A stretch of 64,000 nucleotides of DNA, taken from the NCBI GenBank assembly GCA_048940925.1, contig JBHLOC010000002.1, positions 200,843-264,842 of the forward strand, given 5' to 3'. Shown piece by piece: positions 21,306 to 23,389 of this stretch (within the stretch, counting starts at the first letter, position 1; each line of letters begins with the position of its first letter). Origin of the DNA: Promethearchaeota archaeon. GTDB taxonomy: Archaea > Asgardarchaeota > Lokiarchaeia > Sigyniarchaeales > SOKP01. Under the pieces are notes generated by a model, which worked only from the letters and a program-made list of their open reading frames with translations, had not been told where the DNA came from and searched no databases. Position numbers and translations under genes: made by a program.

Positions 21306-21497
21306 TTATAGATTAATTTCGATTTTTATAGTCTTAATGTTTTCAGGTACTTTTTTAGTAGAATTCAAATAACCTAAAATAATGTTCGCAAGCATCTCCT
21401 GCATAAAATCTTTTAATGGGATTTTTTGTTCGTTAACAATTAAAGTTGCATCAACCATATTTAACTCTAAATCGCTTAATTTTTTAAAATTTTTCAT
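21306..21497 (-). CDS. Small protein resembling the MobB C-terminal domain
   Basis: LIVNEQKIPLKDFMQEMLANIILGYL pattern. Confidence 0.5.
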   Translation of the reverse strand: MKNFKKLSDLELNMVDATLIVNEQKIPLKDFMQEMLANIILGYLNSTKKVPENIKTIKIEINL

Positions 21498-21597: not shown

Positions 21598-22062
21598 TTG
21601 ATTAATTCAATGCCAAATGAATTTTTACTCTCTAATTCAGAGAATGAATTTTTAACCAAATCTCGCGTAGCTAGGATTGCAACAATAGACGCTGCTAGTA
21701 ATTTTCCGCATATAATACCAATCTGCTATAGTTTTGATGGCAACAATTTTTTTACATCACTACGTAATACTAGTAAGCGCTTGCAAAATATTAATAAAGG
21801 AAGTAAAGTTTCATTGTTATTTGATGAATATGTTGAGAATAATGGAAAATGGATAACACTTCGAGGAATTCTTATCAACGTGACAATTTCTATTCTAAAT
21901 TACCACGATCATTCAGAACAATTCAAGCAAGGATGGAAACAACTAATTGAAAAATATCATCAATATAAAACATGGGCACAAGAAGATTTAAGTCCAACAG
22001 ATTCAAATACACGACGTATTATGAAAATGACTCCAATCCATAAAATATCATGGGGATTTTAA
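21598..22062 (+). CDS. Pyridoxamine 5'-phosphate oxidase-like split-barrel flavin/F420-binding protein
   Basis: VARIAT, PHIIPICY, KRLQNI, C-terminal ISWG. Confidence 0.78.
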   Translation: MINSMPNEFLLSNSENEFLTKSRVARIATIDAASNFPHIIPICYSFDGNNFFTSLRNTSKRLQNINKGSKVSLLFDEYVENNGKWITLRGILINVTISILNYHDHSEQFKQGWKQLIEKYHQYKTWAQEDLSPTDSNTRRIMKMTPIHKISWGF

Positions 22063-22126
22063 AAAAAAAGAAATAAAAAACATACTTTGAAAAAAATTAA
22101 AGATAAAACCAAAACCCTTGCAGGGG

Positions 22127-22168
22127 TTGTCCTTTTACAACTATCTTTTCTTTGTAAAAATCATTCAA
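22127..22168 (-). promoter_or_regulatory. Kink-turn / SECIS-like hairpin
   Basis: Minus strand UUG-AAU-GA-UUUUUACAA-[AGAAAAGAUAG]-UUGUAAAAG-GA-CAA: AUGA...GA tandem-GA core, 9-bp upper stem, A-rich loop. Confidence 0.5.
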
Positions 22169-22184
22169 TTTGGTTATAATCGAT

Positions 22185-22421
22185 TTATGTAACCTTTATG
22201 GTACTTATTATAAAATTTAAATTCTCGAACAAGCACCCTTCTTTTTGTGATAAAGAACCAAATATCATACAAGGTGAAGATCATGAGGTTCCTCCCTCGA
22301 AACTCAACATTGTTATTACTATTGCTACTATGAATGTCACGATGATTGCTCCAACTAAAATCCACATGATAATTCTTTTAATTTTTCTTCTTTTCAAGTG
22401 TTTTATCTCAGAATCACTCAT
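22185..22421 (-). CDS. Small single-pass membrane protein: 46 aa if UGA (22281-22283) is stop, 78 aa if read as Sec
   Basis: MSDSEIKHLKRRKIKRIIMWILVGAIIVTFIVAIVITMLSFEGGTS-UGA-SSPCMIFGSLSQKEGCLFENLNFIISTIKVT-UAA; not in the ORF track. Confidence 0.5.
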
Positions 22422-22480
22422 TGTAACTAACGAGAATTAAAAATCAAATAAAAAAGATTTCTATTCTTCTAAACACTTTG

Positions 22481-22900
22481 TTAATTTTTGATATTTAATA
22501 ATAAAAAGGCATATATATCAGTTATTAAGAGAAAACCACCAATAATTATAAAAGAGTAGATAATAAAGAACGTAAGATTTTGGTGAATTATATAAATGCC
22601 AATCACACCCCCTAAAAAGAAAAACACCATGTCCGTAGCTACATTTATTTTACTATCTCTTCTATGTCTATATTTAATTTTGAATTTGTAAAGAAGAAAA
22701 TTTTCTAGAACTTCCCAACTAATTGAAGCAATTACATTTAGCAATAAAAGTAAATAATCAAAAGATATTTTAAGACTTATATTTAAAATAGTATAATTAG
22801 TTAATAGGATCAAATACCCAAGAACTATATGAGTAAAACTAAAGAAATCAATGGCAGAAATTCCTACTTCTTCTTTATTTTTTGCTATTATTAACATCAT
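22481..22900 (-). CDS. Membrane protein (HxxxG...WE...D..N..D motif family)
   Basis: DFFSFTHIVLG, SWEVLEN, DSKINVATD; ~4 TMs. Confidence 0.65.
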   Translation of the reverse strand: MMLIIAKNKEEVGISAIDFFSFTHIVLGYLILLTNYTILNISLKISFDYLLLLLNVIASISWEVLENFLLYKFKIKYRHRRDSKINVATDMVFFFLGGVIGIYIIHQNLTFFIIYSFIIIGGFLLITDIYAFLLLNIKN

Positions 22901-22921: not shown

Positions 22922-23389
22922 TTAATGATTTAGCTTAGCAGTAATTAGACCTAAACATATTATGAAAAAGCTAAAGAGAAATCCTAGCCCCAGACAAAAT
23001 CCAAAATTTTGATAAAAATAGGATATGAAATTTGTACCATCAGATGCTCTAGCTATTGTTCCCCCTGCTAAGGTAATAATTATTAAACATAAAAATGTTA
23101 ATATAGTAATAGTAATAAACCAAGCTAAAACAGATCTCTTATATTTTATAATAGGTGAGGTTTTACTTGTGTATATTAAATAAATTGCAGGAAGAATAAA
23201 AAGTAGGAAAGAGAAAAAAATAAACCAAAGACTGATCGTGATTGCTAAATCTGCCCAAACTCTAGCAGGATTTATAATATTATTGCTGATCCAAATTAAT
23301 AGAGGAATTATTATGAATAATCCAGCACATATCAGGCAGATTCCACCAATTTTTTTTTTACAATCACTTTGCATAATTCTTTTACTCAC
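22922..23389 (-). CDS. Four-TM membrane protein
   Basis: Four hydrophobic segments. Confidence 0.6.
   Translation of the reverse strand: MSKRIMQSDCKKKIGGICLICAGLFIIIPLLIWISNNIINPARVWADLAITISLWFIFFSFLLFILPAIYLIYTSKTSPIIKYKRSVLAWFITITILTFLCLIIITLAGGTIARASDGTNFISYFYQNFGFCLGLGFLFSFFIICLGLITAKLNH

Follow-up and report, generated by a model that had tools for sequence, protein, structure and literature searches.

The window considered here is a stretch of 64,000 nucleotides from the genome of a Promethearchaeota archaeon (contig JBHLOC010000002.1, C41 in the contig numbering of this genome), and all positions refer to it unless a contig is named, with the strand given as (+) or (-). On its minus strand, at 22185-22421, lies a small gene with an in-frame UGA codon, followed by a hairpin of the kind that directs the insertion of selenocysteine (Sec, U). 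This is very probably a genuine selenoprotein gene of a family for which no description was found in the literature searched. The protein family appears to be new and the recoding system a known one; the product is almost certainly a selenoprotein, and the recoding of UGA as Sec may be regarded as good as shown on comparative grounds.

The gene and its reading frame

The initial annotation of the locus, made from the nucleotide sequence alone, described an ORF (open reading frame) that starts at the ATG at 22421 and encodes a basic N-terminus, one transmembrane (TM) helix and the series GGTS-UGA-SSPC, all of which were found at the positions claimed. The basic N-terminus reads KHLKRRKIKR and is followed by one hydrophobic helix and then by ..SFEGGTS-UGA-SSPC...EGC... 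The further claim that the frame stays open for 31 codons beyond the UGA, up to the TAA at 22187-22185, is borne out by the sequence. The features of the coding region are as follows.

22185-22421 (-): predicted selenoprotein coding sequence, 78 residues, with ATG at 22421-22419, the Sec codon at residue 47 and TAA at 22187-22185
22374-22421 (-): predicted N-terminal cytoplasmic segment, residues 1-16, MSDSEIKHLKRRKIKR, from alignments and counts of Lys and Arg
22302-22373 (-): predicted single TM helix, approximately residues 17-40, from a hydropathy scan and an AlphaFold2 model
22281-22283 (-): UGA, read as Sec (U47) in the context EGGTS-U-SSPC, from the TGA at the homologous position in all 61 readable homologues
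22188-22280 (-): tail after the Sec, 31 residues, including Cys at +4 and +17, weakly constrained in the clade of the window

An ORF of 80 amino acids on the plus strand (22198-22440) is treated as a probable antisense artefact of this AT-rich gene.

The SECIS element

The element downstream of the gene is a selenocysteine insertion sequence (SECIS) of the type described in Lokiarchaeota, and its parts are arranged as follows.

22107-22175 (-): complete SECIS in the 3' untranslated region (3' UTR), 69 nucleotides, consisting of an outer 7-bp stem, a kink-turn core that carries the main hairpin, and a further hairpin of 5 bp
22175-22169 with 22113-22107 (-): outer stem, AACCAAA with UUUGGUU, 7 bp
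22130-22164 (-): lokiSECIS core, with AUGA at 22164-22161, a 9-bp stem, an 11-nucleotide loop and GA at 22131-22130
22160-22152 with 22140-22132 (-): main stem, UUUUUACAA/UUGUAAAAG, 9 bp
22151-22141 (-): apical loop AGAAAAGAUAG, 11 nucleotides, A-rich and ending in AG
22113-22128 (-): second small hairpin, 5 bp, inside the element
22089-22114 (-): T-rich tract UUUUGGUUUU...UUUUUUU directly 3' of the SECIS, a likely archaeal transcription stop

The published lokiSECIS is defined by an AUGA, a 9-bp stem, an apical loop of 11 nucleotides and a GA or AA; the loop's first five positions are mostly A, its last nucleotide is a G that is usually preceded by an A, and the element is found close to where the coding sequence ends (Mariotti et al. 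2016, PMC4989117). The candidate element has every one of these features and agrees exactly with the published definition, as does the statement in the initial annotation that Lokiarchaeota use eukaryote-like SECIS elements in the 3' UTR with an AUGA...GA core. The hairpin, its 9-bp stem, its A-rich loop and the flanking AACCAAA/UUUGGUU pairing were likewise found in place; the boundary given at 22127 was too short, since the element ends at 22107 and includes the second hairpin at 22128-22113. The same description had put the element 17 nucleotides after the stop codon, which is right as to its position near the stop, but the outer stem begins 9 nucleotides and the AUGA 20 nucleotides after it, with the core approximately 115-119 nucleotides from the UGA. 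A terminator-like site coincides with the second hairpin (22128-22113) and is followed by the T run.

The genome comprises 4.8 Mb with a GC content of 30%, and the strict lokiSECIS pattern occurs seven times on both strands together and not once in the reversed genome. Four of these seven sites are situated immediately 3' of genes for HdrA or HdrA-VhuD with several in-frame UGAs. A covariance model, R1, which was built solely from 43 elements of the small membrane selenoprotein family, also retrieves seven sites from the genome, the SECIS of an HdrA-VhuD gene scoring highest at 56.9 bits and the candidate second at 55.9 bits. Three further HdrA or HdrA-VhuD elements are among the seven, and taken over both scans four or five of the sites lie 3' of multi-Sec HdrA/VhuD genes. 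The HdrA and HdrA-VhuD elements recovered by R1 are those on contigs C64, C19 and C85 and at C41:146530; the last of these (C41:146530-146571, (+), 50.1 bits) lies about 54 kb before the start of the window. The candidate cannot be told apart from the SECIS elements of the accepted HdrA/VhuD selenoprotein genes of its own genome, and besides these SECIS sites there is no other match to it in the genome by either the pattern or R1.

Comparison among relatives points in the same direction. In the 43 aligned elements the UGA of the AUGA and the GA are invariant, 94% of the stem cells are paired, double changes occur in eight of the nine stem pairs, and the observed covariation score was reached by none of 500 shuffles. 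RNAalifold, applied to 11 orthologues, found compensatory changes in 9 of 20 pairs, and a SECIS is present at all 62 member loci examined. Rfam, used in both its gathering and its E-value modes, returned no SECIS or other credible match to the element, as was to be expected because published tools also miss lokiSECIS (PMC4989117).

Conservation of the UGA codon and spread of the family

Homologues were gathered by a single-sequence search and then a profile search in 54 genomes of the genus, and a phylum-wide profile search covered 400 Asgard genomes, from which 20 loci beyond the genus were retrieved for inspection. The gene is present in 44 of the 54 genomes in 45 copies, every one of which has a TGA at the same site after a Gly-rich run. 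Beyond the genus it is present in five other genera of its family and in three genera of a second family, all within one class, and 16 of the 20 loci show ..GGGG-U-xC.. together with a SECIS. One further locus among the 20 has a SECIS as well, but its frame is not readable and so it stands outside the count. TGA therefore occupies the Sec site in 61 of 61 readable homologues from 8 genera and two families of one class. By comparison, long ORFs of the genome end in TAA in 72% of cases, in TAG in 15% and in TGA in 13%, and the second stop of the genus members is TAA in 42 and TAG in 3. The initial annotation had named homologues that end at this position in UAA or UAG, and homologues that lack the hairpin, as findings that would speak against a selenoprotein; neither kind was seen, TGA being found in all 45 genus members and in 16 from other genera, and the SECIS in all members. 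Three relatives without the UGA (in genomes G243, G241 and G117) serve as negative controls, and these have no SECIS.

Two of these UGA-less relatives, L088 (G243:C134) and L089 (G241:C17) of a sister genus, share the basic head and TM helix of the family and terminate in an uninterrupted series of Gly (..GGLGGGGGGGTIFG-stop), without Sec, Cys or SECIS. G243 additionally holds a UGA-containing copy. L088 and L089 may represent a Sec-free form of the family that is either ancestral or degenerate. Among the 14 sampled genomes of the sister family f2 of the same order none matched, and what was retrieved from families further removed were long ORFs aligned on the TM helix alone, which were not counted as members. 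The organisms that carry the gene are known solely as metagenome bins from sediment and mangrove, and the sequencing runs listed for the sequence are DNA runs from such metagenomes, with no RNA run among them. Public protein collections hold only pieces of 39-54 amino acids that are cut at the UGA and labelled hypothetical, and in addition one record, the only one of full length (P0034, of the G003 orthologue), in which the TGA is translated as Trp (..GGGG-W-GC..), so that an artefact of gene calling conceals the Sec codon.

It might be argued that the UGA is an ordinary stop codon, that the product is a membrane peptide of 46 residues with a Gly-rich end, and that the element is an unrelated RNA such as an L7Ae-binding kink-turn, a small RNA or a terminator. 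The public annotations give exactly such products, relatives without Sec that end in a Gly run exist in G243 and G241, the second hairpin with its T run resembles a terminator, and the tail is poorly constrained in the clade of the window. Such a reading is nevertheless very unlikely, as it has to reckon with an element that is indistinguishable from the HdrA/VhuD SECIS and that nothing else in the 4.8 Mb matches, with a TGA in 61 of 61 homologues against a background of 13%, with a conserved Cys and an open frame just past the supposed stop, and with relatives that lack the UGA and the element alike.

The sequence beyond the UGA

A Cys is found at +2, +4 or -2 relative to the Sec in most members. 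The arrangement U-x-C is that of most members, U-x-x-x-C is that of the clade of the window, and C-G-U occurs in one subgroup. The proposal of a 78-residue UxxxC selenoprotein is thus supported in its selenoprotein part, but the UxxxC spacing is restricted to the small clade of the window and the motif of the family is GGGG-U-x-C, with CxU and U-only variants.

Conservation past the UGA had been suggested as a check, and apart from the flanking Cys it is visible in the frame itself. Among the 45 genus members the median open length of the read-through frame is 31 codons, compared to 4 and 18 in the other two frames, and 34 members have at least 24 open codons in it, compared to 2 and 16. The pooled ratio of nonsynonymous to synonymous changes (pN/pS), calculated from pairs that are not independent of each other, is 0.50 for the head and 0.475 for the tail, and 0.74 and 1.20 for the other two frames of the tail. 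Diverged subfamilies share the tail motifs ..LEQ/FEQ.. followed by a short hydrophobic end.

The tail varies greatly in length. Short-tail lineages end in U-G-stop, U-GG-stop, U-SG-stop, U-PG-stop or U-C-stop, and a single genome holds both a long-tail and a short-tail copy. The distance between the UGA and the SECIS is 95-119 nucleotides in most genus members, whatever the position of the second stop, and 74-108 nucleotides in the short-tail lineages within the genus; in most sampled loci of other genera it is 37-75 nucleotides. The stop codon of most long-tail members lies 11-20 nucleotides before the SECIS core. Judged from these sequences, the tail is optional and dispensable in some lineages. 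Since tails vary or end early while the SECIS stays near a set distance, the constrained features would be the Sec itself and the spacing from UGA to SECIS, and the tail may in part be a translated spacer that is required by the SECIS and has weak constraints of its own.

The initial annotation had also offered a second reading, namely two genes, with a 46-residue protein followed by a translationally coupled ORF of 36 residues that starts at an ATGA overlap. In the window the TGA does overlap an ATG with a GGAGG before it, and 35 codons can be read from there without a stop; in the four closest relatives this frame gives a pN/pS of 0.34-0.59 in most pairs, albeit with small counts. Across the family, however, neither the overlap nor the frame is conserved: the TGA is preceded by an A in 24 of the 45 members, by a T in 18 and by a G in 3, the frame closes within 1-7 codons in 14 of the 45 and ranges from 1 to 47 codons in length, and its pooled pN/pS of 1.20 gives no sign of coding. 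The coupled arrangement also leaves the SECIS unexplained, and its probability is next to nil.

Selenocysteine machinery of the genome

A further check that had been proposed concerned the Sec machinery of the organism, which proved to be complete. The tRNA-Sec (C3:50049-50137, 63.7 bits, above the Rfam cut-off) and SepSecS (C3:50626-51927, 485 bits, above the cut-off) are both present, as are a SelB-like factor (C3:45426-46322, (-)), which at 240.3 bits lies below the cut-off of 242 of the bacterial model, and a PSTK-like kinase gene, which at 139 bits is below the curated cut-off of its model. There are two SelD genes above the cut-off, each with an in-frame TGA. The SelB-like factor, tRNA-Sec and SepSecS are clustered on one contig, at C3:45426-51927.

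Architecture and topology of the protein

The protein segment that is best conserved in the family alignments is the N-terminal cytoplasmic motif, which is first acidic and then basic and reads M-x-[DE]-S-E-[IL]-x-x-L-[RK]-[RK]-[RK]-K-I-K-R. Lys and Arg together number on average 4.6 in the 15 residues that precede the TM helix, compared to 0.19 in the 15 that follow it (59 members), and the hydropathy scan gives the helix a median length of 21 residues. From this imbalance the positive-inside rule predicts an N-in/C-out orientation and an extracytoplasmic Sec, placed about 10 residues outside the membrane (median 10, range 7-30, beyond the helix) after a Gly run with some Ser, Thr, Asn and Asp. 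In the AlphaFold2 model, in which U was read as C, residues 3-42 form a helix, residues 43-56 around U47 are disordered, and residues 57-77 form a helix of low confidence; the TM helix, with a predicted local distance difference test (pLDDT) score of 84-89 in the TM region, is the sole confident part. Neither Pfam nor NCBIfam contains a family that matches the window protein (P0001) above the cut-off, and 37 members were scanned against Pfam.

The basic stretch and the helix could alternatively belong to a cleaved signal or a lipobox-like sequence, leaving as product a short selenopeptide, secreted or anchored by a lipid, that would begin at or near the Sec. The n-region, the h-region and the small residues (G-G-G) before the Sec/Cys resemble those of lipoprotein signals in general layout, but unlike in a lipobox the hydrophobic segment has a length of about 21 residues, and 7-30 polar residues lie between it and the Sec. 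Moreover, some lineages have only one or two residues after the Sec (U-G-stop, U-C-stop), which would leave a mature peptide of two or three residues, and the N-terminal cytoplasmic motif is the best conserved segment of the protein. A processed selenopeptide thus seems exceedingly improbable in comparison to an anchored protein.

Genomic neighbourhood

The gene that follows on the same strand is small and conserved.

21306-21497 (-): conserved small gene, the downstream neighbour on the same strand, product probably 50 amino acids starting from MVDATL

This 50-residue gene lies downstream of the selenoprotein gene, next on the same strand after the SECIS, in at least 42 of the 45 genus members, an arrangement limited to the genus. 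The association gives rise to a reading in which the ORF with its UGA and SECIS is mainly a selenium-sensing leader that controls the 50-residue gene, and not a functional protein. In the clade of the window, however, a convergent PNPOx-like gene (21598-22062) separates the two, in other genera the 50-residue gene is found on other contigs than the selenoprotein gene, and beyond the SECIS comes a T-rich tract that resembles a terminator. Purifying selection acts on the N-terminal motif and TM helix, which form the head of the protein and are conserved across two families. Control of the downstream gene is therefore extremely unlikely to be the main role of the locus, and the 50-residue gene was ruled out as a functional partner of the selenoprotein, as the adjacency exists within the genus only.

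The 50-residue protein has a VNEKKIPLKDFMQEML.NI..G core and is found in 155 of the 400 Asgard genomes. It belongs to no Pfam family and the protein atlas gave no usable match, but in NCBIfam it weakly matched MobB/FeS-domain proteins in their C-terminal part. This match, together with longer matches in other genomes, suggests that it may correspond to the C-terminal domain of such proteins, which have about 260 residues, encoded on its own. Its AlphaFold2 model has a pLDDT of 74 and retrieved no fold from the PDB at E < 1.

Directly upstream of the selenoprotein gene and on the same strand are two genes for multi-pass membrane proteins of 139 and 155 residues (22481-22900 and 22922-23389, (-)), which have no Pfam or NCBIfam match and are conserved only in the four closest relatives. 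In other genera the neighbours bear no relation to one another; they comprise an FGGY kinase with TrmB, a methyltransferase with a TIM-barrel protein, PGK, and a HEPN protein with a nucleotidyltransferase. The selenoprotein gene seems to stand alone.

Points that weigh against the selenoprotein reading

Several observations weigh against the assignment and have to be set beside the evidence above. The tail of the four-species clade to which the window belongs is almost neutral, with a pN/pS of 0.56-1.03, and in this clade the -1 frame, which is that of the coupled ORF, looks constrained at least as much, though the counts are small; in the genus as a whole 16 of the 45 members have at least 24 open codons in the -1 frame too. 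No Cys-for-Sec homologue was found in the 400 Asgard genomes or in a collection of 5.8 billion proteins, so that the classical evidence of paired Sec and Cys forms is lacking; such pairs support a selenoprotein but do not define one. Among the genera compared there is no conserved partner gene to give a functional clue, and the N-in/C-out topology has the status of a prediction. Lastly, the thermodynamic fold of the element as a single sequence is no better than chance (z = -0.88) and so is not informative. The case that the element did not arise by chance rests on the pattern scan, the covariation and the conservation at 62 loci.

Proposed mechanism and significance

On the reading of the locus as a selenoprotein gene, its mRNA would bear a UGA at codon 47 and a type-I Asgard lokiSECIS about 115 nucleotides downstream in the 3' UTR. 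The known Loki selenoprotein genes provide the analogy for its decoding: the archaeal Sec-specific elongation factor with Sec-tRNA(Sec) would be recruited by the SECIS, the UGA would be decoded as Sec, and translation would run on to the UAA just before the SECIS. The product is predicted to be a single-pass membrane protein of 78 residues with its basic N-terminus toward the cytoplasm. The TM helix would be a mere anchor, and a flexible Gly-rich linker would present the Sec about 10 residues outside the membrane beside a Cys. It may be surmised that the Sec/Cys pair forms a redox-active selenol, with a reversible selenenylsulfide, at the outer membrane surface, and that its role lies in thiol/disulfide or peroxide chemistry or in the binding of soft metals or chalcogens. 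The complete absence of Cys forms among the homologues found suggests that Cys is unable to replace Sec in the chemistry of this protein. In its minimal form, a single Sec on a Gly-rich arm at the membrane, the protein could provide a natural model of why Sec, and not Cys, is required at some sites.

The family would be the twelfth archaeal selenoprotein family. It is distinctive in that it has so far been found only in Lokiarchaeia, is apparently membrane-anchored, has no Cys form and is reduced by standard gene callers to a hypothetical protein of 39-54 amino acids. The 62 new lokiSECIS elements, with their rich covariation and conserved spacing to the UGA, provide data on the function of eukaryote-like SECIS.

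Two more candidates were seen in the same genome. The first is a second small membrane selenoprotein candidate at C63:88277-88620 (L073:504-850; L108), with a basic N-terminus, one TM helix, an acidic run and C-K-R-U (CxxU). Its lokiSECIS lies 112 nucleotides after the UGA and scores 49 bits with R1, and the reading frame enters the SECIS. Orthologues with both UGA and SECIS exist in G025 and G004; the one in G018 has the UGA and its SECIS was not found by the pattern, and the copy in G068 has no UGA (..GCNC..) and has kept a SECIS-like element. The other is an orphan candidate at a lokiSECIS on C7 (C7:42947-42989, (-), L074, 47.6 bits with R1), where the upstream ORF reads ..VVHAD-UGA-UGA-ADVMKERVDFG.. 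and would contain two adjacent Sec codons. SECIS-first searches in Asgard genomes thus still yield orphan selenoproteins, and for this reason estimates of the Asgard selenoproteome are probably too low.

Comparison with known systems

The known Loki selenoprotein genes with lokiSECIS are HdrA-VhuD, VhuU and PrxL (PMC4989117), and in the terms of Huang et al. 2024 (PMC11227280) lokiSECIS are type-I eSECIS-like elements. The window gene resembles these genes in its in-frame UGA and 3'-UTR element, and the one model R1 detects both. It differs from them in its tiny size, its membrane anchor and its lack of a Cys homologue, and its SECIS sits in a three-way structure of its own with an outer stem and a second hairpin. 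A 2026 review lists 11 selenoprotein families for archaea (PMC13188914); the window family is neither among these, none of which it resembles, nor among the seven Asgard families of PMC11227280. The latter were found by homology to known families (PMC11227280), and a SECIS-first search of the original Loki metagenome yielded no further candidates and no such gene.

Among the weak Pfam matches of the family, the FeoB-associated Cys-rich membrane protein (PF12669) is the only small family that combines a TM helix with a Cys motif. It is likewise very small, with one TM helix followed by a Gly/Cys-rich segment, and is matched by 4 of the 37 members. These matches are far below threshold (10.4 bits for P0001 against a cut-off of 27; best E 0.11) and are driven by the TM helix, and the window family differs from PF12669 in having a Sec and a SECIS and no feoB neighbour.

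The C-terminal GCUG redox tail of animal thioredoxin reductase belongs to a large flavoenzyme that reduces this tail. It shares with the window family a flexible segment, vicinal Cys and Sec residues and an end in U-G-stop, as the member in G213 ends in ..GSGC-T-U-G-stop and a subgroup has GGC-G-U-GG. Unlike the flavoenzyme, the window family has no evident reductase domain or partner.

The closest architectural parallel drawn in the initial annotation is that to the eukaryotic SELENOK and SELENOS, which present their Sec to the cytosol. In common with these, the window family consists of small single-pass proteins that lack a globular redox fold and carry their Sec in a disordered, Gly-rich segment, and several members end in ..GGTG-U-G-stop or ..GGGG-U-C-stop; a Sec close to the C-terminus is confined to such short-tail members (U-G-stop, U-GG-stop, U-C-stop). 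In SELENOS the penultimate Sec188 forms a selenenylsulfide with Cys174 (PMC3628699), and in SELENOK the Sec is within a disordered segment (bioRxiv 10.1101/2021.05.15.444318). The Sec of the window protein is by contrast 32 residues from the C-terminus, the linker between TM helix and Sec is about 10 residues in the window family and not 50-140, and the predicted topology is the opposite one, with the Sec extracytoplasmic. No Pfam match to SelK/SelG or Selenoprotein S was listed for P0001 or the 37 members at E up to 10. The parallel therefore holds for the architecture but finds no support as homology, and because sequence similarity is lacking, the linker is shorter and the predicted topology is opposite, the likeness is taken as an analogy with a small chance of deeper kinship. 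That the family is an archaeal relative, or an evolutionary precursor type, of the SELENOK/SELENOS class, small tail-less membrane selenoproteins in which a Sec on a flexible Gly-rich arm would be the one functional element, is very unlikely. The 2024 survey of Asgard archaea reported no eukaryote-specific selenoprotein family (PMC11227280); if the kinship were true, the window family would be the first eukaryote-type selenoprotein architecture in Asgard archaea, and in a weaker form of this reading it would be the first archaeal selenoprotein known to be tethered to the membrane outside the cytoplasm. The resemblance offers a concrete starting point for testing how eukaryotic membrane selenoproteins arose.

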